Assembly: GCA_964016885.1 (NCBI GenBank)
Contig: OZ024743.1
Coordinates: 279,930,001-279,994,000 of the forward strand
Length of the DNA stretch: 64,000 nucleotides
DNA from: Eledone cirrhosa
Lineage: Eukaryota
Direction of reading: 5' to 3'
Of this stretch, positions 2,252 through 63,013 are shown piece after piece (positions within the stretch are counted from its first letter, which is position 1; each line of letters starts with the position of its first letter). Position numbers and translations under genes: made by a program. Under the pieces are notes generated by a model. That model was not told the origin of the DNA, did no database searches, and was given only the letters and a program-made list of their open reading frames with translations.

Positions 2252-3390
2252 CATCGCACGAGGAAAAAATAAGAATACTTTCACTATCTTACGGCGTTTT
2301 CGCTAAATCCGCAAGTATTCTGTTGAGCCTTATATGTACCAAGCGATCCTTGATTCAGAAACTGGAGGAGTTTGTCTGAATATATGAAAATAATACAACT
2401 CCCAAAAATATACAAATCTTAAATAGATGTTATATTTTACCCTACGTCAAATCTGATTGATCATTTCTATTATCAAAAGAGTTTCACCCATAATCTGTAT
2501 TTGTTTTAGCCACAGTGTATGTAATGCAATAATTTGTGAGTAAGTTGGCTGCTAAATCTATACTGTCGATCAACCGCGTAACATCTCACTCACTGACTCG
2601 AATGTCAATATATAGTAAAAGGTAATGGATAGCAGAATGGGAAAATCAAGTTCCAATCCCACCAGTGTTGACTTTGCTCTTCTTTCAATAAAGTAAATAG
2701 AAATTAAGCTCCAGGGTATGTTTAATACACTATTTTCTCCCGTAAATGTTGTAGCGTTTTAGCAATATACGAAATATATATTAAAGATTTAATAGATTGA
2801 TTCAATATTGATTTGCTATCAACCTATTAATTGTGGAATAACATGTAAATTGTATACTTCACGGTTGAGTCTTGTTTAAAGAAGCACGCAAATGAAAGAG
2901 GAAAAAAGGTTTTGAAGTATTTTGAATGCGGATTCTTAATTATAAGTTATTCAATAAACAACTTAAGATATAAAAAAAAAGGTAAATTCCTTTTTACAAT
3001 TTATCTCTTGTCAACAATAAATAAATTCAAGTGTTATGAACAGGAAAAAATAAAGCGATTCTTTCATATATATTTTCTTGGAGAAAATGCACGGCAAATA
3101 TTGAATTTGAGGACATTAATTAAAATAAAGATGGGGGTGATTAAAAAATATGTTATTCATTTTGTTATCAATTGTGAAATTCTAAGAAGTAGCCTGGAGT
3201 CTCAAGCTGAAGAATATTCTTATTTCAACCCATGTTGGGGAAATCTATATCTAAATTGACAAACTCCACACATCTGCTCATTAAATTGCATTACATTTCA
3301 TTAAGATAGTTAAGGTATAAATATTTTTGTATATTTAAACCTAGAAAGTACATTCACTCACTTACACACACACACATACATATATATTTA

Positions 3391-4166
3391 CGAGGTGTGT
3401 CAGAAAAGTTCCAGGACTGATGTCACAAAAGATTTATTTCAAACCCAAATTACACACTAAGAGTTTTCTCCTTCAAAGTAATCCCCCTGGAGTATGTAAC
3501 TGTAATCTTAGCTCTCTGCAGCGATCAAACTTTTTTCTTCATAATTTTATATACATGTCCTCTGTTTCAGGTCGTCAATCAATGAGAACAGAGCAACGAA
3601 CAAACTTGAAAACTCCGTCAGAAGCACTGGGATTGCTGCAGCAAGTGTATGGAGATGAGACGATGTCACGCTCACGCGTTTCTGAGAGGTGCAAGAGGTT
3701 TAAAGAAGGACGAGAGGACGTGGAAGCTGACCCCAGGAGCGGAAGGCCCTCAACAACCAGGACTGAGGTCAACGTTGAGCGCGTCAGGAAGATGGTGCCA
3801 AAACTGCTGAACGATGACCAGAAGGATGGACGCTTGCAAGTGTGCCAGGACATCCTCGAGCGTCTTGAAACCGAACCAGACTTGCTAGGGATAGTCATCA
3901 CCGGTGATGAATCATGGATCTTCAAGTACGACCCGGAGGGGAACCGTTTTGAAGGCGTGGACGACATCAAAACGACCGTGACGACGGAACTACGGAGGAT
4001 CCCGGAAGAATCCTTCCAGGAGTACATGCAAGCGTGGCAGAAAAAGATGGAAAAGTGCATTAGACTCCAGGGGGATTAAATTTAAGGAGAACACTCTTAG
4101 TGTGAAGATTGGGTTTGAAGATTGGGTTTTGTACCATCAGTCCTGGAACGTTTCTGACCCACTTCG
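3391..4166 (+). mobile_element. Internally deleted mariner (Tc1/mariner) DNA transposon
   Basis: Imperfect ~32-bp TIRs (CGAGGTGTGTCAGAAAAGTTCCAGGACTGATG at 3391-3422; complement at 4135-4166), TA on both sides, transposase remnant inside. Confidence 0.92.
3420..4079 (+). pseudogene. Mariner transposase remnant with internal deletions
   Basis: HTH-region motifs (VYGDETMSRSRV, FKEGREDVEADPRSGRPST), VPKLL (WVPxxL-like), first catalytic motif IVITGDESWIFKYDP and C-terminal KCIRLQGD. The segment with the other two catalytic Asp is missing. Confidence 0.88.
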
Positions 4167-6482: not shown

Positions 6483-6673
6483 CGGTGGATTGGTAGTATC
6501 GGTAGGGGGTCGGACGCCATGCTTTTCTGCGAAGAGTTACGGCCCTTTATGGTATGAGCTCAAATCCCGCCGAAGTTAAATTTGCCTCACATCCTTACGG
6601 GGTCGATAAAATAAACTACCAGTAATGCACTGGGTTAATTGCCGGCCTTGTACCAAAAGTAGAAATAATTATT
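6483..6673 (+). mobile_element. Abundant SINE (Deu/Nin-domain-like core)
   Basis: GGTGGATTGG.AGTATCGGTAG head, B-box-like GAGCTCAAATCCCGCC, core CATCCTTACGGGGTCGATAAAATAAA, (ATT)n tail. More than 12 related copies in the window. Confidence 0.8.
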
Positions 6674-10422: not shown

Positions 10423-10815
10423 GATCCCGGGTTAAATCGGGGATAACCACAGTAAGTAAGGTACTCAATACATAGCAGAGTAAAAGTAATTTAATATAGA
10501 AATGGCTACTACAGGACTAGAACTGTTTCATTCTGAGGAAATCATCAGAAATAAAACGTAAATTTCTGGTATTTATACATTTTGTCATGGTAAGCGAAGG
10601 GTAGTGGTTGGGAGGGGGTAGGGGTCATGGTGGGATTAAAGGATGGGGATTCTTAGGAAAAACAAAATTTATTTAGAGAAAGAAGTTTCGGAGCACGTTC
10701 CATTTGAAATAAACACTATCTTATTCTATAGGACAATTTTGAACAAAAGGTATATCAAATAGTTGATCAAAACAGCTGTGGAAATGGTAGGTTAGTACAA
10801 GGTCACAAGCATTCA
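10422..10815 (-). mobile_element. PLE pLTR fragment, family B, with HHR motif
   Basis: Inverted homologue of 12760-13106; 3' end shared with 15884-15965 and 57280-57447; ends in (TA)n; minus-strand CTGATGA..GAAA-CAG..CTG-TA at 10504-10552. Confidence 0.7.
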
Positions 10816-11148
10816 CGCCAACACACAGGCGCCCACGCACGCGCACACACGCACACGCACGCACACACACACACACACATACACACACACATAAATACAT
10901 ATATACACATACATATACCTACATACAGACACACCTACACACATGTGTGTGTATATATATATATACATATATATATGTACACATGTATATGTTTATATAC
11001 ATATATATATACACATACATACACATACATATATATATATATACATATACATATATATATACACACTCACATATATATACATACACTCTCACACACATAT
11101 ATATGCGCACACATATATATATATGTACATACACACACTCTTACACAA

Positions 11149-12215: not shown

Positions 12216-12591
12216 TTATATACACATATAAACACATAAAAATACACAAAGGGAAAATTTAAGGAAACGATCAAAATATGAAAAAACCATCAAATAACAT
12301 GAATTAAAATTAAGTAACATAAAATACAAGTAGATAAAAGTAAAGTATAAGTTATAAGTTTGAAAGGTAAGAAAACGAAGGTAGGGTTGGGATGGGATGG
12401 GGGTGCGGGGGAGTGTGTTTAAAGTCTAATGTCGATTCCGTTGTCTTCTGGGATCATCGTTCAGGGGGAAGAACTGTTCTATATGACTTGCATAGTTTTT
12501 GTGCATGCGATTCGAGCAGTGTTCTGATGAGAGTCTATTGAGTAACGGTCCTTTGGCGAATAGTATTTGTAGGTGTATGTATGTGTGTACA

Positions 12592-12650
<59 letters not shown>

Positions 12651-12759
12651 GTGTGTATGTGTGTCTGTATTTAGGTATATGTATGTGTATATATGTATTT
12701 ATGTGCGTGTGATGTGTGTGTGTGTGTGCGTGCGTGGGGGCTTGTGTGTTGGCGTGAGT

Positions 12760-13106
12760 GCTTGTGACCTTGTACTAACCTACCATTTCCACAGATGTTT
12801 CGATGAACTATTTGATATACCTTTTGTTCAAAATTGAATAAGATAGTGTTTATTTCAATTGCAACCTGCTCCGAAACTTCTTTGCTCTAAATAAATTTTG
12901 TTTTTTCTAAGAATCCTCATCATTTAATCCCACCATGACCTCTACCACCATCCATCCTCCACTCCACATCCCCACCCCCAACCACTACCCTTCCCTTACC
13001 ATGGCAAAATGTATAAATACCAGAAATTTACATTGACAGTCGGCTTTCTGATGATTTCCTCCGAATGAAACAGTTCTAGTCCTGTAGAAGCCATTTCTAT
13101 ATTAAA
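12760..13106 (+). mobile_element. PLE pLTR fragment, family B
   Basis: Homologous to 10422-10815; TATAAATACCAG box followed by an HHR; ends in (TA)n. Confidence 0.7.
13042..13092 (+). ncRNA. Type I hammerhead ribozyme motif
   Basis: GGCTTT-CTGATGA-T-TTC(CTCC)GAA-T-GAAA-CAG(TTCTAGTC)CTG-TA-GAAGCC; predicted cleavage after A13086. Confidence 0.8.
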
Positions 13107-13187
13107 TATATATATATATATATATATATTTGTGAGAAATATATATATAGATGTTAGAAAAACCACTGACCTTCCATCTCAACTCTA

Positions 13188-14239: not shown

Positions 14240-14888
14240 TAAATCCATCAATTAATGGTCCAAGCCGTATGAAGAACTCAATGTAATCCGTATGTAGAAT
14301 ATGTTGTGAAGCAAAGTTTAAAATACAAAGTTTCAACGAGATAATTCATTGGAAGCAGAGTCAAAAAGATACAAATAGTGAAAACAATGAAATTAAACAA
14401 AATACGGGTAATTCATAGTAAAACCCATTATTTTACGATCGCTTCTGTGGGGTAGTTCTCCGTATATTCATTCTATTAATGATCTATGTAAAATATATTA
14501 CAAATTATCAAAGTAAGAAAATATACATACGTCTCCCCTACCCGCCGTCTTCAGAAATAATGAATTTTGTTTATTGAATAATATAAAACATGTATTAACT
14601 GCTTCCGCTAAAGAAGTGGTATTAGCTAATCTTTAGCGGAAGCAGTTAATAATTGTAAAAAGAAGAAAATTAATTATAACCTAACTTGGAAGATTCCCAT
14701 TTCTTATCAGGGCAATAGAAAGGAGTGTGGACTATGTTCCCAAGAAATTTTTGAAATTACTAAATCGAAAGACACTCTATTAAATAAAAGACAGCAATTA
14801 AGTATCGCATGTAACCATAGAATTAGAAAGACATTCAAGTATTATAAATACAACTAAACAAATAAAGAAGAAAATATAAAAGAAAATG

Positions 14889-14924
<36 letters not shown>

Positions 14925-14927
<3 letters not shown>

Positions 14928-15056
14928 CGAAGTAATTGTGGTAAGGAACCAGATGGACCATAACGCACCAGAGTACTCAATAGTAGAGTGGGTAATAGGA
15001 AAAAGTATGACCCCGACGGCAGAGCTCAAGCCGTTTCGACGGCTATTTCTGGACTA
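14925..15056 (-). mobile_element. Short 3'-terminal pLTR copy of the intact-PLE family (family A)
   Basis: Closely similar to 32504-32644; abuts (TA)n. Confidence 0.85.
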
Positions 15057-15104
15057 TAACTAAAATAAGTTATTGGGATATCCAATAACTTATTTTAGTT
15101 ATTG

Positions 15105-20256: not shown

Positions 20257-20296
<40 letters not shown>

Positions 20297-20297
20297 A

Positions 20298-20763
20298 AAA
20301 ATAATTGTTTCTACTTTAGGCACAAGGCCAGCAATTACCCAGTGCATTACTGGTACTTTATTTTACCGACCCCGTAAGGATGAAAGGCAAAGTAAACCTC
20401 GGCGGAATAATAATTGTTTCTACTTTAGGCACAAGGCCAGGAATTTACCAGTGCATTACTGGTACTTTATTTTATCTACCCCGTAAGGATGAAAGGCAAA
20501 GTCAACCTCGGCTGGATTTGAACTCAGATCGTAAAGGGCTGTAACTATGCTGGAAAGCATGGCGTCCGACCCTTGGGAAAATAATTGTTTCTACTTTAGG
20601 CACAAGGCCAGCAAATTACCCAGTGCATTACTGGTACTTTTATTTTATCGACCTCAGAAGGATGAAAGGCAAAGTTAACCTCAGCGGGATTTGAACTCAG
20701 ATCATACAGGGAGGTAACTCTATGCTTCAAAGCATGGCATCCGACCCTCTACCGATACTGCCA
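20298..20763 (-). mobile_element. Tandem cluster of three partial or complete copies of the abundant SINE
   Basis: AATTGTTTCTACTTTAGGCACAAGGCCAG repeated at ~20303, ~20412 and ~20583, each followed by the AAGGATGAAAGGCAAAG core. Confidence 0.85.
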
Positions 20764-20914
20764 AAATTAATGATAGAGGACTAGAACTGTTGCATTCGTA
20801 TGAAATCCTTAATCAGGAGTGTCCTGGTGATTTCATACGAATGAAACATTTCTAGTTATTTAGGATAAATTTTCTCTCTCTATCTCATTGTCATCCTCAT
20901 CATCACCATCATCA

Positions 20915-23534: not shown

Positions 23535-24244
23535 TGTGTGCCTGCTCGCAAATGTGTGTATATAAATTTTTTAAATACACATGTATCTAACAATGTAAGT
23601 GAAATTAGCCCGATCAAATATTACTATTTTGAGCTGTATTTAATTACATATTTTACTATGCAGCATATGAATTAATTTTTATGAATACTGATACAAACTG
23701 AGTTTTACAGGAGCAGATATTTTCTTGTTTAAACACATTGCAAATTTGTTTCTCTTTTCAATCTCATCTGCGCGTTATACTTGTCATATCTCCTCTGAAT
23801 GATGTTTGTCACGAGCTGTGAGGTGAAAAGCCTATTTAATTTTGACGATGTTTCATCAAAAGCAATAGCCACAGCTCCCCACTTCTTTTTAAAGCAAAGG
23901 GATGCATTAGACCATAAAGAACATAATACAGCTCTACGCAGAGAAGCCCTATTAGCTAATGAATGTATGAAGTAGAAAATATGTAGAAAATATGGCTCAT
24001 AATCCTTTAAATTCTATGTCCTTCAAATTTCCACATGTAGAGAGCTTGTGTGTGGTTGCTTCATTTTCTAGAATTCTCATGCAAATTTCCATCAAACCAC
24101 TTCCTACCTTCTTCAACAAAGAAAAAGTACACGTCAGATAATGTACACCTATATATCATTAAAGAAACAGGATAATCTTGGTTGAAATGCGTCAGACCAT
24201 GATTCTTCTCAAACAGGCTGGACCAGGGGCTAAACTACAACAAT

Positions 24245-24456
24245 GTTTTCTTATATAGGCAAAAGGCCAGCAATTTTTTGGCAAAGGGAAAGTCGATTAA
24301 ATCGACCTCAGTGTGTGACGGGTACTTTATTTTATCGACTCCCTAAGGATAAAAGGCAAAGTTAACCTCGGCGGGATTTGAACTCAGATCAGAAAGGGCA
24401 GTAACTCTATGCTGCAAATCATAGCGCCGTACTCTCTACCGATACTACCAGTCCAC
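24245..24456 (-). mobile_element. Abundant SINE copy
   Basis: Reverse complement of the 39627-39845 type. Confidence 0.85.
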
Positions 24457-24559
24457 CAAACAATAACAAACAGCAGCCAAATGTTTTCATTAACTCCATT
24501 CTTATATCACATTCTTTGCAATTATCAGTAGGAAAAAAGATAAGAGTACATTATACGCA

Positions 24560-28947: not shown

Positions 28948-29216
28948 AATATATTCATATATATATATATATATATAACAATATATTTAGAAACACACAG
29001 ATACATGCGGACACACACATATACATGAATGCATCCACACCCAACCGTGGGTTGAGGGTGTCAACCTCACCGATGTTGCTCAATGAATGACTGGGACAGA
29101 CCATTCCGGTTGAACCAGACTGAACCAGTATCAGAGTTAAGATACATTATGAAGAGAGAAGAAACATTTAGATATAATTAGTAATGAAATGTATCATACC
29201 TAAACTGCTCCTAGAT

Positions 29217-29306
29217 TCCTCGACTACGTAGTTTCGTGGCATAAACAAAAACAATACATCATAAAGATATAGAGTCCCTGCGAGGTCTGCCGACTTATCA
29301 AGAGGA
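29217..29306 (-). ncRNA. Variant type I hammerhead (U3-A8 core, long stem II)
   Basis: Reverse complement of 30105-30194. Confidence 0.75.
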
Positions 29307-29809
29307 TACCTCATTTTACTAGTCTCAAGAACGCGTCTACACGACGTGAGAAAGAATCCCAAAAGGCGGAGGGGGAGATAGTCACGCGATATAACGGTCG
29401 AGAAACAGAGCTAAGCCTCTTATAACCCCGAAGAAAATACCACAGAGGCGGAGGGGGTATTTATATCGAAGCCGTAGAAGAGGTGGTGAAGGAGGCGAGA
29501 AGTATGAGTAATGGCAGCTTTCCAGCAGCCACCACACTTCAAAGATTACTCAACCAGAGGGAGTTATTAACAATATATTTAGAAACACACAGATACATGC
29601 GGACGCACACATATACATGAATGCATCCACACCCAACCGTGAGTTAAGGGTGCCAACCTCACCGATGTTGCTCAATGAATGACTGGGACAGACCAATCCG
29701 GTTGAACCAGACTGAACCAGTATCAGAGTTAAAAATACATTATGAAGAGAGAAGAAACATTTAGATATAATTAGTAATGAAATGTATCATACCTAAACTG
29801 CTCCTAGAT

Positions 29810-29899
29810 TCCTCGACTACGTAGTTTCGTGGCATAAACAAAAACAATACATCATAAAGATATAGAGTCCCTGCGAGGTCTGCCGACTTATCAAGAGGA
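29810..29899 (-). ncRNA. Variant type I hammerhead (U3-A8 core, long stem II)
   Basis: Reverse complement of 30105-30194. Confidence 0.75.
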
Positions 29900-30104
29900 T
29901 ACCTCATTTTACTAGTCCCCTTCACCACCTCTTCTACGGCTTCGATATAAATACCCCCTCCGCCTCTGTGGTATTTTCTTCGGGGTTATAAGAGGCTTAG
30001 CTCTGTTTCTCGACCGTTATATCGCGTGACTATCTCCTCCTCCGCCTTTTGGGATTCTTTCTCACGTCGTGTAGACGCGTTCTTGAGACTAGTAAAATGA
30101 GGTA

Positions 30105-30194
30105 TCCTCTTGATAAGTCGGCAGACCTCGCAGGGACTCTATATCTTTATGATGTATTGTTTTTGTTTATGCCACGAAACTACGTAGTCGAGGA
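30105..30194 (+). ncRNA. Variant type I hammerhead (U3-A8 core, long stem II)
   Basis: TCCTC-TTGATAA-GT(C)GGCA...TGCCAC-GAAA-CTACGTAG-TC-GAGGA; predicted cleavage after C30189. Confidence 0.75.
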
Positions 30195-30263
30195 ATCTAG
30201 GAGCAGTTTAGGTATGATACATTTCATTACTAATTATATCTAAATGTTTCTTCTCTCTTCATA

Positions 30264-30341
<78 letters not shown>

Positions 30342-31992: not shown

Positions 31993-32189
31993 AATAGGAA
32001 AATGTTTAACCCCGATAGCAGAGCTCAAGCCGTTTCGACGGCTATTTCTAGTCCAGAAATAGCCGTCGAAACGGCTTGAGCTCTGCCGTTGGGGTTAAAC
32101 ATTTTCCTATTACCCACTCTACTAACGTAAGTATTGAGTATTCTCGTGCGTTATGGCTCATCTGGTTCCTTACCACACTTCCTCCGTTA
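31993..32189. mobile_element. Head-to-head short pLTR copies of family A
   Basis: 31993-32048 and 32049-32189 are inverted relative to each other and match 32504-32644; flanked by TA repeats. Confidence 0.85.
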
Positions 32190-32351
32190 TATATATATAT
32201 ATAGTTGTATATATATAGTTGTATATGTATATATATATATATAGTTTTCCAAGAGATGGCTCCATGAATGGACCTGTTATTTTTCTCTAAAAGCAATTTT
32301 TTTCCAATTCCACTCCTCCTTTCCCTTCAATTTATCTAATTTCTCATTCTT

Positions 32352-32465: not shown

Positions 32466-32506
<41 letters not shown>

Positions 32507-32597
32507 CGAAGGAAGTGTGGTAAGGAACCAGGTGGACCATAACGCACCAAAGTACTCAATACTTGAGGTAGTAGAGTGGGTAATAGGAACCAGTAAG

Positions 32598-32691
32598 ACC
32601 CCGACAGCTGAGCTCAAGCCGTTTCGACGGCTAATTCTGGACTAAATGAAAATTTATCCTGGTATTTAAATAGCCAATCTTCTCGAGGGGT
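32598..32691 (-). ncRNA. Variant type I hammerhead (U3-C4...A8 core, long stem II) in the PLE 3' pLTR
   Basis: Minus strand: ACCCC-TCGAGAA-GAT(T)GGCTATTT..31 nt..AATTAGCCGTC-GAAA-CGGCT(TGAGCTC)AGCTG-TC-GGGGT. Confidence 0.7.
32663..32672 (-). promoter_or_regulatory. Putative TATA box (TATTTAAATA) of the pLTR, with Inr-like TCATTTAGT about 20-30 nt from its start
   Basis: Same context as TATAAATACC in families B (~13011) and C (~29946); short copies of family A begin at the Inr-like site. Confidence 0.45.
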
Positions 32692-33793
32692 AATTCCATA
32701 TATGGTCAAAGTGATTGTCAAAAATCAGTAGTAATTCTGTGGTTGCAAATTAGTAGGGGAGATGGTGGCTAAACCTGCCAGTAGAAGAAAGAGGGGAGGG
32801 GGTGGAGTAGACCCAATCGAGCGTTGGTAGTGCCAGCTACAGCTGGGCATGAGGTCAAAGAAGATACAGGGGAGGGGGAGGGGGAGGAAGTCGGAACGGT
32901 AGGTAGAACAATGGGGGGTAGAAATATATAGGAAAGAAAAAATACTGAGAGTGAAGAAAAGCCAATAAGTGTAAAGAAAAAAGTAAAGTAAATTAAAATC
33001 TACGACCTAGGTCTCTAGCTATTGTTAGGCTAGAATAAATAAATAAAGAAAGAAAGAAAGAAGTAAAGAAAGAAATAAAGAAATAACGAAATAAGTAAAA
33101 GAACTAGGTGGGACGGAATAGGCAAGGACCCTTTTAAGAGGTATAAGTACGTAAATGATACGGTGACGGGTCAACAAAAGGGGCCAAAATACTAAAGAGA
33201 CTACCACGAAATAAACAATAAAGGTTTCCATCCCGGGCACAATGCCAGCAATCACCCAGTGCAGCAAAGTGAACTAGTACGAGATAATAATTCTGAGTCC
33301 CGAGAAAAATATATACTAATGCTAACTCTAAAAGATCTAAAACAAGCTACATGAAAGTTCGTACGAAGTAAAGGTCGAATACGGAAAAATAAATTCAGAA
33401 TCCACCCCGCCCAAAAGAAAAGCGAAGAAAGAAATACTGAAACGAAAAAATAAGGCATAAGTGCCACTAAGAAATATAGAGGGCACAGAGAATAGTGGGA
33501 GCGGTCGGGAAAAGGGGACAAGTATCTGGGGTCTAAACCAACTGCTATAAAGGGCGGAGTCCGCCAAATCTATCATAGACTAGGGGAGAGGGTGGGGGTA
33601 CTAAGGCTACAAGGGGCCAAAGGGCAGCCTCGAGTGGGCGAGAAAAGACGCCGACAAAGGAGAAGAGCTGGGGTAGAAGGACTAAGGAGAGAGGGGGGAA
33701 GGAAATAAAGGAAGCAATAAAAGAATACAAAGAAGATCTTACGTCTCCCTTGGCAAGCAGGGGTTACCCATTGCAAAATCGGCAAGTGGGGTG

Positions 33794-35959
33794 TTATAGC
33801 CCTAGTCTACCCCCCGGGTCATTATGGGGTTTGAGGGCGAGATAAGTCCTACGCAATCTATGTTTACATGCAGTAACCAGTTCATCTTTCTTGTTTAGGA
33901 GTTGGTCCGTCGAAAACAGCATTTGTAAAGTTTCCTCCGAGCATAAATTGCACGGACGGCGTCCTCCCGTGTAAGAATTGGCTCTGGACAGTAATCTCCA
34001 AGTGAGATCATAGGTGATGTTGTTGTCCTTGAGGTCCCATATGTGGCCCGAAAGTGTAGTGGCGTGACGCCGGGCCGGGTTTCGGAAGGTATGTCTATGT
34101 TGGTATAGCCGGGTCTTGAAGTCACATGCGGTAAGTCCTATATAGGCTTTGTTGGAGGTATCCGTCCTCACGTTGCACTGGTAGATCACATTACGGTCTC
34201 TGCATCTATTGTCGAGTGGGCAAATAGATCTATCCGGGCAGTTACACCTCCTGGTCGGTTCTCCACTGCTATTTAGGTTATTTCTGCCATCGGGGTTGAG
34301 TTTTTTGTTGTTAGAGGAGACGATGTTTTGTGCGAAGTTTGGTGTAGTGCTGTAAGAGAGTTTGATGGTATTTTTGTTAATTATGTTGTGGTAGCGGTAT
34401 TGTAATGGGAAGTGTTTTTCAATGAGCCTAAAGAATAGTTTCTCGATGGGAGTTGTCACCTCTGCGTTGTGGGGAGGATTGAACCATGTTACATTGCGTG
34501 AGCGGCGGTGTCTCCTGCTGGTTCGGCTAATGGGAGCTGGACAGTAGGATATTTCCTCCCGGAAACCACTCCGCTTGAGGGCCTGGTTGTAATAAGGCGC
34601 ATGTTCATCGAATATCCGCTCATTAGCTGACAAACAGGATGTGCGGAGGGAGATGTTTTTGACCAGGTTGTTTGTGATGTTCCTAGGATGGTTTGATCGG
34701 CGGTGGATGTAGTGCAGATTGTCATTAGGTTTCCTGTATGGGTAGTACAGGTCGTTTTCGAGGTCGAGAGTCACGTCCAGGAAGTTTACTCGGGTCAGGG
34801 ACGTTTGTAGGGTTATTTTAAATCCCCAGTTGCGGAAGAATCTGATTAATTGTTTCCGGACCCGATCTGTACTACTGGGGTTGTACCCTTTAAGGGTAAG
34901 GAGCCCATCATCACGGTACAATCCACCACCGAATGCAGGAAACATATCAGTGAGTTTGGCTATTAGGAATAATCCTATAAGATCTGTGACCTCCGCCGAA
35001 TCCGTGGTGCCCATGCTGACGTCGAAGGGTGAGTCGGGAGCTCTTTTTATCCATTTAGAGTCGTCAAAGAGTAAGACTGTCTTCCTGGCGTGGAGGATGA
35101 TTTTTCTTTCCTGGTCGGTGATGGGCACAAGTGTTTCGGCGAAGTCCAAGGCGGCAGTAAGTAGCGGTAAGGTGATTGAAGCATAGTAGCTCTCTATGTC
35201 GAACTGTATGAATTTAGTTTCTCGTTTATCCTCCATATTGCTGAACCAGGAGATTACTTCCTGGGTGTTGATCCATAGGCTAAGTCGGGTGTGTTGCTTG
35301 ACTTTTGGTATCACGCGGTCTAGGATTTTTTTGCTGATTCTCCCTATGTCGGACTTCGTTGGGTTAATAAGCCTGATAGAGGGTTTACGGTCAAAATCGG
35401 ATTTATGGTCCTTGAGTGTGAAGTATGGTGTCCGTGGGTCTAGAGGTTCCGTGCGGTCGGCGACCCCGAGGCTGGAGGTGATTTGTTGTCCATCTCGATT
35501 TATGTCCTCGATGCAAGAGTAGTTGGCCTTTTTATAGGTGGAGTTTAGGCTGCTCCTGATCAGTGTGTGGTATCTGTCAGGGTTGACAAAGTATAGGTTC
35601 CCAGTTTTATCCGAATGCACCATGATGTCATTTGTGTTATCATACTCTGTTAAGTTGCTACGGAGTTTTTGTAGGAATCGGTTGTGTCTGGGTTTAAATT
35701 TAATGTTCTTGACCAGTTGGAAGAGGTCATTCTCGAAGGGTGCGAGCAAGGGGTTCAGGGGCGGAGATTTGAAGGTAATAAATCCGAATCTCTCCTTGGT
35801 GCCGAAGTCTTGGTTGTCGCAATATCTGTCATAGAAAAAAGTTCTCCATCTAAGTCTTTTCGCAAATAGATTGATTTTTTGCGTGAGCATCCGAAGGTTA
35901 AGTTTTTTCGGTGGGATTGGGATGTTCTTGGTAGAGAAGTGAATGTTGTGTTTTCGCAT
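33794..35959 (-). CDS. PLE polyprotein: reverse transcriptase + Cys linker + C-terminal GIY-YIG endonuclease (721 aa from MRKHNIHF)
   Basis: RT motifs FIQFDIESYYASI, DVSMGTTDSAEV, GLYRDDGL, VNFLDVTL, YRKP/SNHP; linker CNCPDRSICPLDNRC; endonuclease NVIYQC..AYIGLT..FKTRLYQH..LSGHIW..CNLCSEE..LLNK. The ORF-track extension to 36211 runs through the terminal repeat and microsatellite. Confidence 0.95.
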   Translation of the reverse strand: MRKHNIHFSTKNIPIPPKKLNLRMLTQKINLFAKRLRWRTFFYDRYCDNQDFGTKERFGFITFKSPPLNPLLAPFENDLFQLVKNIKFKPRHNRFLQKLRSNLTEYDNTNDIMVHSDKTGNLYFVNPDRYHTLIRSSLNSTYKKANYSCIEDINRDGQQITSSLGVADRTEPLDPRTPYFTLKDHKSDFDRKPSIRLINPTKSDIGRISKKILDRVIPKVKQHTRLSLWINTQEVISWFSNMEDKRETKFIQFDIESYYASITLPLLTAALDFAETLVPITDQERKIILHARKTVLLFDDSKWIKRAPDSPFDVSMGTTDSAEVTDLIGLFLIAKLTDMFPAFGGGLYRDDGLLTLKGYNPSSTDRVRKQLIRFFRNWGFKITLQTSLTRVNFLDVTLDLENDLYYPYRKPNDNLHYIHRRSNHPRNITNNLVKNISLRTSCLSANERIFDEHAPYYNQALKRSGFREEISYCPAPISRTSRRHRRSRNVTWFNPPHNAEVTTPIEKLFFRLIEKHFPLQYRYHNIINKNTIKLSYSTTPNFAQNIVSSNNKKLNPDGRNNLNSSGEPTRRCNCPDRSICPLDNRCRDRNVIYQCNVRTDTSNKAYIGLTACDFKTRLYQHRHTFRNPARRHATTLSGHIWDLKDNNITYDLTWRLLSRANSYTGGRRPCNLCSEETLQMLFSTDQLLNKKDELVTACKHRLRRTYLALKPHNDPGGRLGL

Positions 35960-36128
35960 GGTGCGGGTGAAATGAATTGAGCTTAGCGGAAAAGTCTGGA
36001 TACGGCGTGGTAGGGTCGGAAAGTGCTCTACTACGGGAGTATGAGCTAGATAACGAAGGAAGTGTGGTAAGGAACCAGGTGGACCATAAAGCACCAAAGT
36101 ACTCAATACTTGAGGTAGTAGAGTGGGT

Positions 36129-36171
<43 letters not shown>

Positions 36172-39400: not shown

Positions 39401-39626
39401 CATAGCTCTGTTGGTATCAAACTACTTGAAACCGCCACTGTTTCGGAGTTATAAATTAATTTATTTTAAGTTATATAATTGTATGAAAGAACTTTTGTTA
39501 ATTTAGGCTCCAAACACCAGTTATGTAATGAAAAAGTTAGTCATAAATCCCTCCAAATTCTTATTTTCAAAATTAATTGAAAATCATAGGCAGCGGTATT
39601 TTTTTATTATTATTAGAAATATGGAG

Positions 39627-39845
39627 GGCGGTGGATTGGCAGTATCGGTAGAGGGTCGGACGCCATGCTTTGCAGCATAGAGTTACGGCTCTTTATGATC
39701 TGAGCTCAAATCTCGCCGAGGTTAACTTTGCCTTTCATCCTTATAGGGTCGATAAAATAAAGTACCAGTCACGCACTGGGTCGATTTAATCGACTTTCCC
39801 CTCCCCCAAATGACTGGCCTTGTGCCTATATAAGAAACCATTATT
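39627..39845 (+). mobile_element. Abundant SINE, near full length
   Basis: Complete head, core and tail; ATTATTAGAAATATG present on both sides (TSD-like). Other copies at ~37030-37172, 38740-38865, 39999-40190, 40500-40700, 52898-53072, 62320-62460 and 63010-63131. Confidence 0.88.
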
Positions 39846-41511
39846 AGAAATATGACAACGAAAGATATATTTGGATAATATGATTGTAGATGCACTGTTT
39901 CTGATAAACAATAAACAAAAACAGAAAATAGTCACAGCTGGGATGCGTTTTGATCATAATCATTGCAAAGCCGTAAGAGAGTCGCATAAACTATCGAGTG
40001 GTGGATTGGCAGTATCGGTAGAGGGTCTGACGCCATGCTTTGCAGCATAGAGTTACGGCCCTTTATGATCTGAGTTCAAATCGCGCCGAGGTTAACTTTG
40101 CATTTCGTCCTTAAGGGGTCGATAAAATAAAGTACCAGTAATGTACTGGAATAATTGCTGGCCTTGTGCCAAAAAGTAGAAACAATTATTTACTTTTCTT
40201 TTGACTCTGAGTTCCAATCCTGCTCTAGTCAACTTCGGCTTTCATCCATTATTGGTCAATAAAATATAGGACCGGTATACGTTGAGATATTGGTAGCATT
40301 GTTAGAGCGTTGAATGAGATATCTTTTGGTATCTGTTCCGGCACTTTTCAAATTCCGTTGTGCATCTAGAAATGCATTATCCAATTTGACCTTCGCGTTT
40401 AATAACAGTAGGGTTTGAGGGGAATTGACAGCTATTTCTAGCTTGTGAAATGACTGCCTAATAATTCCGTTGGTGGAAAGTTTAGAGTGATTTGATATTA
40501 ATAGATTCTGACATAGGCACAAGGCCAACACTTTGGAGGAAAGGGAAAGTCGATTAACTCGACCCCAGTGCGCGACCGGTAGTTTATTTTATCGACTCCG
40601 TAAGGATGAAAGGCCAAGCTAACATCAACGGGATTTCAACTCAGATCGTAAATGGCCGTAACTCTATGTCATAAAGCATGTTGTCCGACGTTCCACCGAT
40701 TTGATATTATTACTTCATGTTGACATCATCATTATTGTTGTTGATCTTTATCAAACAAGCTATTCCAGTTGTGGCGAGAGGATTGGACTGTTTTATTCTA
40801 GCAACTCCAGCAGTCATGTAGAGTATACTTCGATATTTCATTTTCTTTATGAAGAATATGGAACATGGAAAGGATGGGGTTGGCAGAAGTACTAGTGGAC
40901 TAGTGGCGATACTAGCAATTTCTCATCGTGAAAATATCACTGGTCATATCTGGGAAAACAAAACGAAACTAAGAAAAAAAGTAAAACGAAAAAAGTCAAA
41001 AACACTATTTCAGCCCTAACGGTTCACTGGACACAGTTCATTTCATCCACCACACCTTCATTCGACATTCGCCCGAGCGATAATCAGCTTTGTCTATTTA
41101 GCACGCATGTGTAATCAGTAACGGCTGGGTGACGAGAAGGCAGTGACGCTGGACTTGTTTGTCTGGCGTGATTCAGAGACACTAGTTTTCAAAGATGGCA
41201 GATATTTCCCATGTATGACTCTAACAATATGCTGTCTCTCTATAAATATGTGAATGTGTCTCTGTATATGTATATGTGTGTGTATTTAATATTAGTTTGT
41301 AGGTTGTCTTGTTTCATTGATTTTTCTCTGTCTGACGCTTTGTGTTTGTCAAAAACAACAAAAAATATTTTGCGTAATTCTTTTTTTTTTTGTATATTTT
41401 CATTGTTTACTTTCCGTTTTTATATTCATTATATACATTTTTTGTATGTTTGTGGGAATAAACTCTTTCCATTTTGGATGTGTATGTATATGTATGCGGT
41501 TGTGTGTGCGC

Positions 41512-42294: not shown

Positions 42295-42960
42295 AATTAT
42301 ACTTGAAATTTCTAATATAGTTTTTTCTTGTACATAACATATCTTGTAGCTGCAATATGATTTCATTTCTTTATTCCTTTCATATTTTTTCTATGCTTGT
42401 GTTTTCATATAACTAATGAAATACAGTTGTAAATATTTTGGTTATTCTGAAAGTGGCTGCAGTAGTCCAATTCTATGGTTCACTTACCCTTGGATCATGA
42501 AAGTTCTCATAAAGCCATCTTCATGGATGATATTTGCACCAAATGATGTCATTTGGAATGTATTATTGTACTTCAAGGGCGTTGGTTGACACTATCGGTA
42601 GAGAGTCGGACACCATGTTTTGCAGCAAAGAGTTACGGCCCTTTACGGTCTGAGTTCAAATCACGCCGAGGTTATCTTTGCCTTTCATCCTTACGGGGTC
42701 GATAAAATAAAGTACACTGGGATAATTGATGGCCATTATTGTACTTCTGGATATTTTGAGGAAAGTGTGTTGATTCAGTAATTGTACTAATCAGCAGTTC
42801 CCTTAATTCTTCTGGTCGTTCAGGTAATAATTTAATCTTAATCTTTCCATTTAAACTGCACAATCCATTTTATAATTTATGACCAAAATATGGACAAATT
42901 TTGTTCATTGAAGAAATTCGAATTAAAGTTTATGAGAAATAATCTCTATGAGGATCGTAA
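42295..42960 (-). mobile_element. Helitron Rep/helicase remnant
   Basis: Minus-strand translation NGKIKIKLLPERPEELRELL..STHFPQNIQKYNN / TFQMTSFGANIIHEDGFMRTFMIQG*VNHRIG / PKYLQLYF / LQLQDML matches the N-terminal region of Helitron RepHel; interrupted by a SINE. Confidence 0.85.
42575..42734 (+). mobile_element. SINE inserted in the Helitron with a 13-bp TSD
   Basis: TSD ATTATTGTACTTC at 42562-42574 and 42735-42747. Confidence 0.9.
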
Positions 42961-47499: not shown

Positions 47500-47581
<82 letters not shown>

Positions 47582-47730
47582 ATACTTTGGGAGGGTCATG
47601 TTGCCAATAAGAAACACACGCACCAGTTGCTTTCACTTCAATTTATTATATATTTATAAATTTATAAATCTACAAATTTATAAATTTCTGGTTGGTTGGT
47701 GGTTCCACAACCAGATAGTTGTTTATATAT

Positions 47731-47775
47731 AGTCATAGTTCTTTCGTCACATACTCTGTGACCTCTTCAGTGACT
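47731..47775 (-). ncRNA. Minimal type I hammerhead ribozyme
   Basis: AGTCA-CTGAAGA-G-GTCACA(GAGTA)TGTGAC-GAAA-GAAC-TA-TGACT, sense to the ORF. Confidence 0.82.
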
Positions 47776-48038
47776 GGGGATTCCTTTCTTTGTTTCTGTG
47801 CCTCTCCTTTGTTCTGTCCTACGCCATTTTGTTTCTGTGTGTGTGTTGTGTGCTCAGTCTGCGCATGCGCCACATCCGGGTGTCTGTGTGTGTTTATGTT
47901 CATTTATTTATTTGTTTATTTACATGTTACTGGTTGGTTGTTTGTTCTATGTGTGTGTGTGTTTTCATTTTGTCCTTAATTGTAAGTTGTGATGTTGCTG
48001 TTCCACTCATATTTTCTATTTAATTTTGGTTGTAATTC

Positions 48039-48899
48039 TTATATGTTTATTGCCTCTGTAATTTGTCTAAACATTGCGTCTTTTCTGTGTGTAGATTCTA
48101 TTTTTATTTCTATGTTCTCTAATTTACCCTTGTATTCTATCTTAGCATGCTGGTAGAGTACAGATGATTCTTTATTATCTTGAAGGTCTCGCCAGTGTTC
48201 ATTTAACCGTTCCCCTACACTACGAGCTGTGTCACCTATGTACACTATATTTTTGTCTCTACATTGTCCTTCAGTACATCTTATGCTATACACTACATTT
48301 CTAGTTTTACAGTTAATATGGGGGCTTATTTTACAGGTTATAAATTTCTTATCTATACATGAGGGTCTTTGAAAAGGGTATGTCTTGCTAATAAGTGTTT
48401 TTACGGAGGTACCTGGCCGTTCTACTATCTTAATATTGAGTTTATGTTTATTTAGGGCCCTTCTAAATTTGTAAGCTAATTCACCTCTAGGGGTTGTATT
48501 GAGGAACATTACACTCTGGTATTTATTGCTATGATACCATGAGTTTATTCTATTAGCCTTGTTCGTAGTTCTTTCTATTCTATTCCGAAATGTGCTCCTA
48601 TACAAGGGGCAGGTCCCATTTATGTCATTATTTACCATTTTTTCCCATTTGGTTCTGGCTCCTCTATACACTCTGATTTTATCTCTCTGATTGTAGCCAG
48701 AGAACTGCATACGGTGGATGAAGTGTTGTATGTGTCTCTCTAGTTCTTCGGGGTTGCACATGCGGGACACATTTCTCATCACCCGTACCAAATCCGCAAT
48801 CAGTATGTTGATTTTGGTATGGTCCGAAATGGCCGAGTTTCGGTGGATCAGATGTTTGGAAGTCATGGGTTTGGCATAATGGGAATGGAGGATTTGTTT
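48039..48899 (-). pseudogene. PLE thumb + GIY-YIG endonuclease fragment
   Basis: HYAKPMTS..NSAIS, RMQFSGY, PLYR, NCKTRNVVYSIRCTEGQC..YIGDTARSVGERLNEH..VLYQH..RQITEA. Confidence 0.9.
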
Positions 48900-49102
48900 T
48901 AAGGACAAAATGAAAACACACACACACATAGAACAAACAACCAGCCAGTAACATGTAAATAAACAAATAAATAAATGAACATAAACACACACAGACACCC
49001 GGATGTGGCGCATGCGCAGACTGAGCACACAACACACACACAGAAACAAAATGGCGTAGGACAGAACAAAGGAGAGGCACAGAAACAAAGAAAGGAATCC
49101 CC

Positions 49103-49147
49103 AGTCACTGAAGAGGTCACAGAGCGTGTGACGAAAGAACTATGACT
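49103..49147 (+). ncRNA. Minimal type I hammerhead ribozyme
   Basis: AGTCA-CTGAAGA-G-GTCACA(GAGCG)TGTGAC-GAAA-GAAC-TA-TGACT. Confidence 0.82.
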
Positions 49148-49358
49148 ATATATAAACAACTATCTGGTTGTGGAACCAACCAACCAACCAGAAATTTATA
49201 AATTTGTAGATTTATAAATTTATAAATATATAATAAATTGAAGTGAAAGCACTGGTGCGTGTGTTTCTTTGTGGCAACATGACCCTCCCAAAGTATAACA
49301 CTATCGGTTTCAACACACGATTTCAGATAAAGAATCTTGCTAAACAAATTCAGAAACG

Positions 49359-49438
<80 letters not shown>

Positions 49439-49439
49439 T

Positions 49440-49714
49440 TTCACATGCGCAAACTAAGCACAGAACACACACAAAAACAAGATGGCGTAGGACAGAACAA
49501 AGGAGAGACACAAAAACAAAGAAAAGAATCCCCAGTCACTGAAGAGCTCACAGAATGTGTGACGAAAGAACTTTGACAATATATGAATAATTGTCTGGTT
49601 GTGGAACCAACCAACCAACCAGAAATTTATAAATTTAATTTATAATAAATTGGAGTGAAACAACTGGTGCGTGTGTTTCTTATTGGCAACATGACCCTCC
49701 CAAAGCATAACAAT
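49440..49714 (+). mobile_element. Solo partial pLTR of family D with a slightly degenerate HHR (49534-49578)
   Basis: Similar to 49010-49280; ends CATGACCCTCCCAAAGCATAACAATA. Confidence 0.85.
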
Positions 49715-49978
49715 ATAGATATATATATCCGAAATAAATTTAGTTAAGTTAAATTAAAGGAGTCATGTCCGAGACATGCGCCATATCCACCGTAGAATAA
49801 ACTCAAAGATTCCAATGAATAGATCCGAGCATCATATATCAACTAGAAATTGATTGACATATATATATATATATTTAAAATAAACACATGAAACAATCAC
49901 ACACTTTACAAATTTTCCCCTGTGATTGTTTCATGTGTTTATTTTAAAGATATATATATGTGTCAATCAATTTCTAGT

Positions 49979-50053: not shown

Positions 50054-51060
50054 TTTAGCGAGGTTTTTTATATGAAATCGTGTGTCGAAACAAATATTGT
50101 TATACTTGTACCAATAGGAAATGTATCATATGTAAGGTGAACCCCCGTATAAACTGTAAAACTAGAAACGTAGTCTATAGCATAAGGTGTACAGAGGGTA
50201 CTTGTAGAAACATGACAACAACATACATAGGTGAGACAGCTCGTAGCATAGGTGAAAGGATAGACCAACACTGGGGGGAACTAAAAGGACGAAAAAACGG
50301 GTCAGTACTATACGAACATGCTAGACAACAATATGACGGTAACATAGACAACATAGAAATTAGAATAATATCTAAACATAGGAATGACCCAGCAGATAGG
50401 CAAATCAGAGAGGCCAGTGAAATAGAAATTAGAAGACCAAAGCTAAACAGAAAGAATGAGTGGAACAACAACAACACCCAAACAAACAACACTGACCTAA
50501 GAGAAGTATAAATAAGTAAATAAATAAATAAAATAAAATAAAATAAAATAAAATAAAATAAAATAAGATAAATAAATACATACACAAGCACAATAACAAC
50601 AAGCACATAAACACACACTAGTCACCCAGCAGACACAACACTATACACACTAGTCACACAGCACACACAACACTGTACACACACGCAAACGCATGCGCAA
50701 AGAAGACAAAATAAAATAAACAAACAAGCAAATAAATAAATTAATATATAGACAGACTGAATAAAAAATGGCGTAGACATACAACACAACAGGAGGAAAA
50801 AATATAACACCACTGACGATGTTGCAGATGTGCAACGAAAGATTTATGTAAATTATGTAAACTATATATATGTGTTTGTGTCTATATTGTATCTGTATTA
50901 TTTTTGACCGTCGGTCAGTCAATGGCAACATTGAGGACCGAGTAAGTTAGATCGCAGATATAAAAGACAGCGAGAAGCGAAAACCAACCAAACAGTGAGT
51001 GTGTTCTGTTATTAATTCTGGCAATATTACACAAATATGACCCTCCCCAAGTATAACAAT
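50050..51060 (+). mobile_element. 5'-truncated PLE related to family D: GIY-YIG fragment plus pLTR
   Basis: 50107-50511 encodes CTNRKCIICK..NCKTRNVVYSIRC..YIGETARSIGERIDQH..RQIREA..PKLNRKNEW; HHR CTGACGA-T-GTTGCA(GATG)TGCAAC-GAAA at 50811-50848; terminus ATGACCCTCCCCAAGTATAACAA then (TA)n. Confidence 0.9.
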
Positions 51061-51370
51061 ATATATATATAATAGTAATAATAATAGTTTCTCATCTAGG
51101 CACAAGGCCAACAATTTGGGGGAAGGAGAAAGTCGATTAAATCGACCCCAATACGTTACTGGTGCTTTATTTTATCGACCCCGGAAGGAAGAAAGGCAAA
51201 CTTAACCTCGGCGGAATTAGCTTTGCCTTACAGGGTCGATAAAATAAAGCACCTGTAATGCGCGAGGGTCGATTAAATTGACTGTCCCCTACAATAAGAG
51301 TTTCGTTCGATATCCACTGTTTTCGATATATTTATTCTCTCTCTCGCTAAACATATATATATATATATAT

Positions 51371-51495
51371 AAAACAAAGAAAGTGTGGGAAGGTACCAGG
51401 TGGACCATAACGCATCAGAATACTCGATACCTAGGGTAGTAGAGTGGGTAATAGGAAAAGAGTCTGGACGCCGAGGTCCTGACTCTTCTCCTATA
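51371..51495 (-). mobile_element. Diverged family-A-like pLTR terminus
   Basis: CCAGGTGGACCATAACGCA..GTAGTAGAGTGGGTAATAGG shared with 32504-32590; lies in (TA)n. Confidence 0.75.
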
Positions 51496-51666: not shown

Positions 51667-53356
51667 CCTTTCTATGTGCGTCTCTCTATGTCTGTCTGTC
51701 CTAGTGTTCGCGTCTGTGCATGTGTGTTATATATAGTTCTTTAGATATATAGTTCTTTAGTGGTCATTAACCGTTATATATGTCTGTTCCAAAGCCTTAC
51801 GCTCTTTCTCCTATCAGCAAGCCTATTGTTTATTTCTGCGCCTCTTTTGACTTCGCGTTGTATATGCTGTATATGCTATATATATATATATATATATCAT
51901 AATGTACTAGATTTATCACATATGTTAGTTATGGAAAAGTTGTGGGTAGTCTGGTTCTGTGCAGTATATAGAGGGTTTTTTGTCTGCATTTCCTGACGAG
52001 TTGTTTTTTTTGCTGATGTTCTAATGCCTGATTTTTTTTTTTTTTTTTCGGAAGTTAATTCTATTATTTTACAATCTTACTTTTGTCATGGTTCTGAGCT
52101 CTGCTTCGAAATTTTATGCGCCCTTAATCTGTGATTCATAATTAAGAGTTCTAAATCCTAGTGCTTCTCATGTAGGCTAATCACCATCGCCATGTTTCAT
52201 GTTGGTATGCCCTCTACCGAAGATGTTTATATAAATCTTTTTCTTTTTATATTTGACATTTTGTGTAAAAATTTCTGTTGTCGAACAGAAACTTTCCTTT
52301 TGAATATCCAAATGTGTGCTGTTCCTTATTCTCTTTGCCGCTCTGTTCCATAAGGAACCAGCTTTAGATATCTAGATATTACAGCTTGTAATCGAAATAT
52401 GAAAAGAGTGTACATGGTTTAGATAGTACCATTTTGTCCCGTGTGTCGAGCTTCTTGCCATTGATATTTCAGACCACAGTTTATTTGTTTTCAATATTTA
52501 TTGCTAGTTTTGTTAATTTATATATTGACAGAATCGTTAGAGTGTCGGATTAAATGATTCGGTACATATTCCAGCTCGTTGCACTTCGCGTTCCAATACC
52601 ACCTTGGTAGTTTTGCCTTTCACCCTTTCGGATTTGATAAATAAGGTTCATGATCAGTGGATTGGCGGAATTTTAATATAATCATTATCTGACTCGGCCC
52701 GTTGCAATCCCCACCTCCTTCTTACACGGCAAGAGCTGCAACTGGCAAAGGAAGGATTAATCGAAACATTGTATGCTTTGTAAGATCTGACGAGCGGCAC
52801 CTTTCTCATTGATTTGTTACCAATATATAGAAGTGGGCTTGTATTTCACGTTTGGTTTTCGTTTTCATTGACTAATTTGCGAATTTCATTTCGTATGGTG
52901 ATTGGCAGCCTCGGTAGAGGGTCAGACACCATGCTTTGCAACATAGAGTTACGTCCCTTTACAGTCTGAGTTCAAATACCGCCGAAGTTAACTTTGCCTT
53001 TCATCCTTCGGGGTCGATAAAATAAAGTACTGGGATAATTGCTGGCTTTGTGCCAAAAATAGAAACAATTATTTTCTTATGGTGATATATATGTATATAT
53101 ATATATGTGTGTGTGTGTATGTGTGTGTGTGTGTGTGGGTGTGTGTGTGTGTGTGTGTTTGTGTGTGTTAGTTAGCAGTTACTGGCGGCACGCCGTTTTG
53201 AAGCACTCGATGTTATTTGAATGTGTCGTTGCACATATATACACCCATATTTGACGAGATGTCGAAAAAGAGTCGATCTCCGCCACCTTGATTGTACCCG
53301 GAGCTGATCGATATCAAAACAAAAGTTTGCACATATGCTGCAACACTGGCTTTGAC

Positions 53357-57094: not shown

Positions 57095-57099
<5 letters not shown>

Positions 57100-57250
57100 A
57101 AAAAGTATGACCCCGACGGCAGAGCTCAAGCCGTTTCGACGGCTATTTCTGGACTGAAATAGTCCTATTTCCCACTCTACTACCCTAAGTATTGAGTACT
57201 CTGGTGCGTTATGGTCCATCTGGTTCCTTACCACAATTCTTTTGTTTTAT
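57095..57250. mobile_element. Head-to-head short pLTR pieces of family A
   Basis: 57095-57156 matches 14996-15055; 57164-57250 is the inverted 3' terminus; (TA)n flanks. Confidence 0.8.
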
Positions 57251-57279
57251 ACATATATATATATATATATATATATAGG

Positions 57280-62507: not shown

Positions 62508-62752
62508 CTCAAGGTAGGATCTGTATCGATCTAGCCCGACTCAGGAATCAAAAGGTCGTCGGACCACTCTGGTAGTAACGACAGTATGAACATACATGGC
62601 GCACAAAAAGGTCTGACTTTCATATGTAACGTTTATATGAACGCTAGACTTGTTTGTACGCCATGTATGTTCATTCTGTCATTACTCCCACAGAGGTCCG
62701 ACGAGCTTTTGATACCAGAGTCGGGCTAGATCGATACAGATCGACTCTTGAG
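62508..62752. mobile_element. MITE-like imperfect fold-back (~245 bp)
   Basis: Arms pair along nearly the whole length (GATCTGTATCGATCTAGCCCGACTC / GAGTCGGGCTAGATCGATACAGATC). Confidence 0.8.
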
Positions 62753-62921
62753 CTGATCAGTAGCGAAACTCACGTCACCAACCAAAATACCTAATGAAGG
62801 AGTAACCATTCGCCCTTGTTTTATTATACTACACTCTGTCTAGCTCTACACCTTGATACTGACGTGAACCTAAACATCGAGTGCTCACTCGGGTGAACTC
62901 CGCGTTACACTCCCTCCCTGG

Positions 62922-63013
<92 letters not shown>

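Follow-up and report, generated by a model that had tools for sequence, protein, structure and literature searches.

The window, the whole stretch of 64,000 nt analysed here, is animal DNA rich in microsatellites and repeats. A self-comparison of the window identified positions 28976 and 30269, between which the earlier note had placed a family of hammerhead ribozymes, as the limits of a single composite insertion flanked by (TA)n tracts (Table 1). The insertion consists of a full non-coding unit of 592 nt (copy 1), an upstream tandem copy which is truncated 18 nt before its hammerhead (copy 2), and an inverted partial copy (copy 3), which stands head to head with copies 1 and 2 next to a single unmatched base at 29918. 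Copy 3 differs from copy 1 in 1 of 351 nt. The three hammerhead copies described earlier are thus present, but as parts of one insertion and not as separate insertions. The tandem extends over 1.6 units at the locus, comprising two complete hammerheads and not two complete units. The ends of the insertion have 2-3 letters in common with the (TA)n tract, which is shorter to the left of 28976 than on the right-hand side.

This arrangement of a partial tandem and an inverted 5' piece is the layout of a Penelope-like element (PLE), the features of which (pseudo-LTR, inverted 5'-truncated copy and one-ended tail) are all present at 28976-30269.

A TATA-like stretch followed by a short C-rich motif was noticed by eye at 29448-29459 (-) and at the matching place in copy 3. 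The C-rich motif occurs twice per unit. Stretch and motif represent a candidate internal promoter, which the truncated copy 2 lacks; a bacterial promoter scan, the model of which is unsuited to an animal genome, remained at chance level.

Table 1. Positions of the insertion, its parts and other features in the window.
Feature	Positions	Strand	Remarks
Whole composite insertion	28976..30269	.	Full unit, 5'-truncated tandem copy and inverted partial copy
Copy 1, full 592-nt non-coding unit	28976..29567	-	Unit positions 1-592 counted from 29567 down
166-nt terminal tail	28976..29141	-	Between the family's two recurrent (TA)n-joined ends
Hammerhead of copy 1, type I, U3-A8	29217..29306	-	C17 29222; palindrome 29223-29232
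Predicted 593-nt cut-to-cut monomer	29222..29814	-	Release predicted
Copy 2, upstream tandem copy	29568..29917	-	5'-truncated at unit position 244; pseudo-LTR in PLE terms
Hammerhead of copy 2	29810..29899	-	C17 29815; palindrome 29816-29825
Copy 3, inverted partial copy	29919..30269	+	Unit positions 76-426
Hammerhead of copy 3	30105..30194	+	C17 30189; palindrome 30179-30188
(TA)n target tract, right side	30267..30338	.	
Hydra-clade PLE, outside the insertion, in (TA)n	32502..36132	-	ORF 35959-33794, 721 aa, RT and GIY-YIG
~190-nt repeat	6484-6673, 20257-20764, 24239-24458, 39625-40200, 40496-40700		
~190-nt repeat	42575-42734, 51059-51290, 52893-53106, 62313-63133		

Hammerheads and predicted folding of the unit

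Scanning the whole window on both strands with a hammerhead descriptor recovered the U3-A8 hammerheads with the core UUGAUAA that had been reported at 30105-30194 (+), 29899-29810 (-) and 29306-29217 (-), and no other sites with this core. The shuffle control (30 block-wise dinucleotide shuffles) yielded 0.1 U3-A8 cores per window. The three hammerhead 90-mers are identical to one another, and the traits ascribed to them earlier, i.e. U3-A8, a bulged pyrimidine, a stem II of ~60 nt, a length of ~90 nt, a palindromic stem III and the GUC, were all found again, as was the distance of 593 nt between the minus-strand cut sites (C17 at 29815 and 29222).

The core is complete (UUGAUAA / GAA-A / U-C), with the U3-A8 pair in the slot of the usual 3-8 pair, and cleavage is predicted to occur after C17 of the GUC. 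Stem I comprises 5 bp (UCCUC/GAGGA). The stem II domain of 59 nt begins with G10.1-C11.1, shows a bulged C after two pairs and six basal pairs, and ends in a distal hairpin of 14 pairs. Stem III, ACUACGUAGU, is a perfect 10-nt palindrome with calculated energies of 0 kcal/mol as a hairpin and -12.9 kcal/mol as a duplex. The U3-A8 pair is a natural covariation reported to be active in vitro (PMC3088659), and the hammerheads of metazoan PLEs cleave weakly (PMC4209133).

Rfam gave no match at gathering score in the whole window, and the five matches at E<=10 obtained for 29100-29700 include no hammerhead, a miss that is probably due to the long stem II. Instead of a canonical hammerhead whose loops 1 and 2 make a tertiary contact, the unit has the variant core and the 59-nt stem II domain. 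Such a contact is not a strict feature of retrozymes, since most of the contact nucleotides are also absent from the mussel retrozyme as described in PMC7229834.

In a single hammerhead stems I, II and III can be formed, with the ends in stem I, at -22.1 kcal/mol in the constrained fold compared with a minimum of -23.2 kcal/mol; the pair probability of stem III in the monomeric hammerhead is <0.1. In the unconstrained fold of a tandem transcript the two stem III palindromes pair with each other along their entire 10-nt length. Compared with the minimum of the tandem, the full double hammerhead is less stable by 9.5 kcal/mol and a pair of monomeric hammerheads by 14.6 kcal/mol. Since stem I is absent from this minimum-energy fold, the active form is not predicted to be the most stable one. 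If transcription reads through the insertion, the ribozyme of copy 1 is predicted to be paired with copy 3 over its full 90 nt, so that the locus itself may be unable to make a monomer; with copy 2 lacking the first 243 nt of the unit, 28976-30269 may be a dead end.

The 592-nt unit is not an autonomous PLE. The single ORF with RT and GIY-YIG of an autonomous EN+ PLE is absent from it, its longest stop-free stretch comprises 80 codons, and none of 120 related PLE proteins matched the insertion at E<1e-3, compared with 118 of 120 for a control stretch.

In the sense of the ribozyme the cut-to-cut 593-mer is predicted to fold far better than shuffles (z -5.3, a value reached by 0 of 100), whereas its antisense folds no better than they do (z -0.1), and three control stretches gave z values of +1.1 to +2.0. 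Folded as a circle, the monomer is paired at 63% of its positions (z -6.4; 0 of 40 shuffles as good). One confident long-range helix is predicted, in which the tail (~29658-29663) pairs with 29485-29490, near unit position 80, across the head-to-tail junction. The GC content of the unit is 43%. ARAGORN predicted no tRNA gene in the window.

PLEs and other repeats in the window

An intact-looking Hydra-clade PLE is located 2.2 kb from the insertion. Its 721-aa ORF has 2,136 relatives among the 8,000 candidates scored, the best of which are mostly ~40% identical and one 53%; no relatives were found in viral contigs, and Pfam gave no name to the PLE ORFs. The protein has the Hydra-clade motifs RWR, DKTG, CxCx5C, CxxC before E, and CxH, as given in section 11 of PMC8557442.

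The element has an 86-nt pseudo-LTR. Its hammerhead (32691-32598) combines U3/A8 and GUC with a bulge, a stem II domain of 54 nt and a long stem III. This is the only complete hammerhead in the window of the type called family A in the earlier note, and was assumed to be the one meant there. Its core reads UCGAGAA (U3, C4, A8), so that UUGAUAA is not common to both families as had been claimed. The claim that they are dissimilar in sequence holds, as the unit and the neighbouring element have no DNA similarity beyond that of shuffles. On the same ground the Hydra element is the likely type of helper, not the partner, of the unit. All 26 Hydra hammerhead rows in File S2 of PMC8557442 show C3-G8 and a short loop 2, whereas the hammerhead at 32691-32598 and that of the unit have U3-A8 and a long stem II.

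Short pieces of the same Hydra-clade PLE family are found in (TA)n at 31993-32217, 57095-57277, 14886-15066 and 51353-51474. In the first two of these, inverted pieces meet head to head within the stem II region and leave one long and one short end, the two-end pattern also shown by the 592-nt insertion.

A further PLE remnant (47575-49716 and ~50080-50500) includes C-terminal coding sequence at 48039-48900 (-), together with an inverted terminal repeat and one more copy in tandem, and has minimal C3-G8 hammerheads at 47775-47731 (-), 49103-49147 (+) and 49535-49577 (+). Another inverted pair, ~80% alike, lies at 10489-11033 / 12564-13107, and a relaxed scan run without shuffle control gave a weak Hydra-like C3-G8 hammerhead candidate at 13042-13092 (+). 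An above-shuffle match to 10489-11033 was rejected as (CA)n low complexity.

The window also contains at least a dozen copies of an abundant dispersed repeat of ~190 nt, which may be an octopus SINE and would give the window a likeness to octopus genomes. A Mariner/Mos1-like transposase fragment at 3345-4079 (+) was suggested by a weak match to HTH_48 (E 0.0013), below the curated cut-off.

The family in public sequencing runs

Four of 23 public sequencing runs (X1, X21, X5 and X8) were compared with a circular permutation of the unit (29100-29691). X5 and X8 are two of the 16 runs that are labelled as other organisms.

In X1, 1,410 contigs fall on the 592 nt and all 30 bins are covered. The summed contig depth of 5e4-6e5 is not a copy number, and the X1 contigs listed have a depth of 4-17 in seven of eight cases and of 416 in the eighth; the unit may be called high copy in this run. 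X1 contains 0.60 of the words and some letters of the window are rare or absent there, hence it probably does not come from the same individual as the window. In X5 and X8 the unit occurs at ~96% identity and a depth of 8-13, with the majority letters of organism A, which may reflect kinship, contamination, diet or transfer alike.

Two (TA)n-joined positions stand among the loose ends listed, 29142 (7 contigs in X1, 237 reads in X21) and 29573 (5 contigs in X1, 246 reads in X21). They match both ends of the insertion; (TA)n is thus the target of the family, the two fixed ends of which are ~160-166 nt apart. The best 15 of the 147 loose-end rows include no continuation of the ORF type. Piles of read ends in X21 at 29179 (AATT) and 29596 (CATG) were rejected as restriction sites, which we take to be the enzyme sites of the RAD library of this run.

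The head-to-tail junction 29567/8 is crossed in all four runs by an allele that is 3 nt shorter than the locus: by three contigs in X1, by 8 of 36 reads from four starts in X21, and by one contig each in X5 and X8, reaching >120 nt on both sides. A joint that goes back 592 nt is the break of the permuted reference and was excluded from this evidence. A 621-nt record of X5 covers the whole unit and, as read from its coordinates, has a terminal overlap of ~30 nt, giving a closed cycle of ~591 nt. The cycle shows a head-to-tail unit; as tandem DNA gives the same cycle in the graph, it does not show a circular molecule. Strand-changing joints were found at several positions of the unit in the runs compared. 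An inverted joint is also present in X8.

A metagenome scan with a 24-mer gave no hits. The best matches of a 17-mer in metagenomes (51 loci) and of a 14-mer in viral sequences (93 loci) extend over 18-27 nt across the 144 loci and were rejected as chance.

Among the best 40 of 100 family substitutions none is located in the core, stem I or stem III of the hammerhead. The two commonest substitutions within the hammerhead (29278, 29257) both change a G-U to an A-U pair in the distal stem II, and a family deletion of 2 nt falls into the terminal loop of this hairpin. Mapped on the predicted fold, 18 family substitutions keep the pair in ten cases, break it in three and are unpaired in five. The proportion of kept pairs does not exceed the chance expectation (10 of 13; p 0.17), except among transitions alone (10 of 11; p 0.03), in a test that is biased because the fold was derived from the locus's own copy. 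None of the five unpaired variants closes a mismatch.

Within the insertion, the tails of copies 1 and 2 differ at 7 of 166 positions, whereas their bodies are identical over 183 positions (Fisher p 0.005). The boundary between the differing tail and the identical body is the second end of the family; two of the differences (29138, 29141) are situated at this boundary. Either body and terminal tail come from different templates, or differences in the body have been erased, by conversion between the inverted arms or by polishing of the assembly. Since identical repeats would be expected from one circular template, a single circular template alone does not explain the tail differences.

Mobility and kinship of the unit

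That a PLE moves the 592-nt unit, itself non-autonomous, we consider quite probable. The earlier proposal of a retrozyme-like non-autonomous element gains support from the family-wide junction, the cycle of ~591 nt, the lack of a PLE remnant and the folding restricted to the sense strand, but the plus-strand copy had not been recognised there as an inverted 5' piece of the kind typical of PLEs. For the full chain, in which hammerhead cleavage and an RNA circle are added to the movement by a PLE, our judgement comes down only just on the favourable side.

According to this chain, the two palindromic stems III of a transcript longer than one unit would form a double hammerhead, cleavage of which after the GUC would free an RNA of 591-593 nt to be circularised by a host ligase. 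Unit-length RNA circles of retrozymes have been described in coral, mussel and axolotl (PMC7229834). Against cleavage stands that only one of nine Xenopus retrozyme dimers was cleaved in published tests (bioRxiv 10.64898/2026.07.22.740005). The (TA)n tract would be nicked by a PLE protein with RT and GIY-YIG endonuclease, probably one of the Hydra type that targets (TA)n, and reverse transcription would start at one of two internal sites, ~80 and 242-247 nt after the cut. Continuing for more than one round of the unit it would produce the tandem copy, while the other target strand would prime a second cDNA from the first site (~80 nt) and so give rise to the inverted piece. Starts at two internal sites, on both strands of the target, are known from the PLE of Anolis (PMC11167929). 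Tails, partial tandems, inverted 5' copies and a (TA)n target belong to the standard features of PLEs (PMC8557442).

The main rival assumes a non-autonomous PLE derivative that moves as an uncleaved linear tandem RNA and forms no circle, its hammerhead being slow, dependent on a protein or just a retained recognition structure. The Anolis PLE is inserted from RNA that has not been cleaved; mutation of its hammerhead leaves insertion normal, and the cut site is not the end of any RNA-seq read (PMC11167929). In addition, eight of the nine Xenopus dimers of the preprint stayed uncleaved (bioRxiv 10.64898/2026.07.22.740005). At the locus, all three copies run through an intact cut site, stem I is missing from the minimum-energy fold, and the seven tail differences fit a linear template with two different tails. 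Movement as linear RNA seems nevertheless rather unlikely to us in view of the intact core, GUC and perfect 10-nt palindrome, of the best 40 of 100 family substitutions lying outside core, stem I and stem III throughout, and of the well-folded cut-to-cut monomer with its helix across the junction.

Less still can be said for 3' debris of an ORF-bearing PLE, in which a copy was 5'-truncated, the template jumped back to the start site and an inverted piece was added; the 592-nt "unit" would then be the accident of a single insertion. The layout is standard for truncated PLEs, in which pairs of hammerheads on opposite strands lie 100-700 bp apart (PMC4209133), the ORF-bearing remnant at 47575-49422 in the window has the same inverted end, and in X21 up to 246 reads have ends joined to (TA)n compared with at most 36 at the junction. 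However, the junction is crossed in all four runs by an allele differing from the locus, long contigs span it in X5 and X8, and X5 closes on itself; the unit has no coding remnant, nor is an ORF-type end found among the best 15 of the 147 loose-end rows. As the junction is common to the runs, we regard such debris as improbable, and as less likely than either movement as linear RNA or the retrozyme reading. A satellite-like repeat, amplified at the DNA level by unequal crossover and conversion from an old PLE terminal repeat and no longer retrotransposing, appears the least credible origin and very improbable: local amplification of PLE termini has been proposed (bioRxiv 10.64898/2026.07.22.740005) and gene conversion might account for three identical arms next to a diverged tail, but the sharp recurrent (TA)n ends and the strand-changing joints fit target-primed insertion and not the expansion of an array, and the locus holds no more than 1.6 tandem units.

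The unit has the structure of a retrozyme, with head-to-tail hammerheads and a self-paired predicted monomer, and is best read as an animal non-LTR retrozyme in its mode of working and as a PLE in its insertion marks. Like the animal non-LTR retrozymes of Cervera & de la Pena 2020 (PMC7229834) and of Li, Clavereau & Pollet 2026 (bioRxiv 10.64898/2026.07.22.740005), it is a non-coding head-to-tail unit with one type I hammerhead, a GC content <50%, a well-folded predicted monomer and co-occurring autonomous PLEs. Its length is within the range of 51-972 bp given in the preprint and above the 170-400 nt given for invertebrate retrozymes. It differs from animal retrozymes in its dispersed (TA)n insertion, inverted 5' piece and two fixed ends; its ribozyme is a PLE-type variant, whereas those of the coral, mussel and axolotl retrozymes are canonical type I (PMC7229834).

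The hammerheads of PLE pseudo-LTRs, among them the U3-A8 variant of Cercyon from Schistosoma mansoni (Cervera & de la Pena 2014, PMC4209133), agree with those of the unit in U3-A8, which occurs in ~1,300 Schistosoma motifs tied to this PLE, as well as in a long helix II with one base left unpaired close to its basal end, in G10.1-C11.1, in a short helix I, in a helix III that is palindromic and in the occurrence of pairs on opposite strands at distances of a few hundred bases. Compared with the hammerheads described there, the unit has an additional 14-pair hairpin in helix II, a 10-nt palindrome and no ORF attached in the data examined. With the Hydra-clade EN+ PLEs (Craig et al. 2021, PMC8557442) it shares the (TA)n target, the partial tandem, the inverted 5'-truncated copy and the one-ended extension. 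In contrast to them it lacks an ORF; its sequence does not match that of the Hydra element of the window, and its tail comprises 166 nt instead of the 30-40 bp stated in PMC8557442. Non-autonomous derivatives of Chlamys PLEs, e.g. MRC1 (PMC8557442), are likewise non-coding passengers with pseudo-LTRs and head-to-tail insertions. However, they belong to green algae and to a clade described there as mostly without hammerheads, and they resemble their autonomous partner at the 3' end, whereas the window contains no such partner for the unit.

The derivation of retrozymes from PLEs has been argued in the 2026 preprint (bioRxiv 10.64898/2026.07.22.740005). The surprise is limited, since earlier work describes elements of this kind, the variant of the core and the layout individually. 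The combination of a long-stem-II U3-A8 ribozyme with a 592-nt passenger, two fixed ends and a 166-nt tail was not found in the papers covered, and a literature search by title and beginning of the abstract listed no paper on the family; the dimeric PLE hammerheads of Lunse, Weinberg & Breaker may include an earlier description of the design.

The farthest-reaching version would combine an abundant circular-RNA retrozyme of a design missed by Rfam, insertions that record mobilisation by a Hydra-clade PLE, a tail taken from another template, and spread between species as the reason for its presence in X5 and X8; taken as a whole we find it doubtful. If it were true, the origin of the 166-nt tail from a separate template would expose where the tails of PLEs come from.

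Because Rfam misses the U3-A8 design with a long stem II, and none of the 26 published Hydra rows shows it, families of this kind are probably undercounted. Arguments on which enzyme moves animal retrozymes have relied on co-occurrence, a shared type of ribozyme and homology of the pseudo-LTRs (PMC7229834; bioRxiv 10.64898/2026.07.22.740005). The present retrozyme-like unit displays the footprints of insertion themselves, namely the (TA)n target, the two fixed start sites and the inverted 5' piece, and together with the intact Hydra-clade PLE ORF 2.2 kb away it offers a ready pair for tests of trans-mobilisation and of circular templates.
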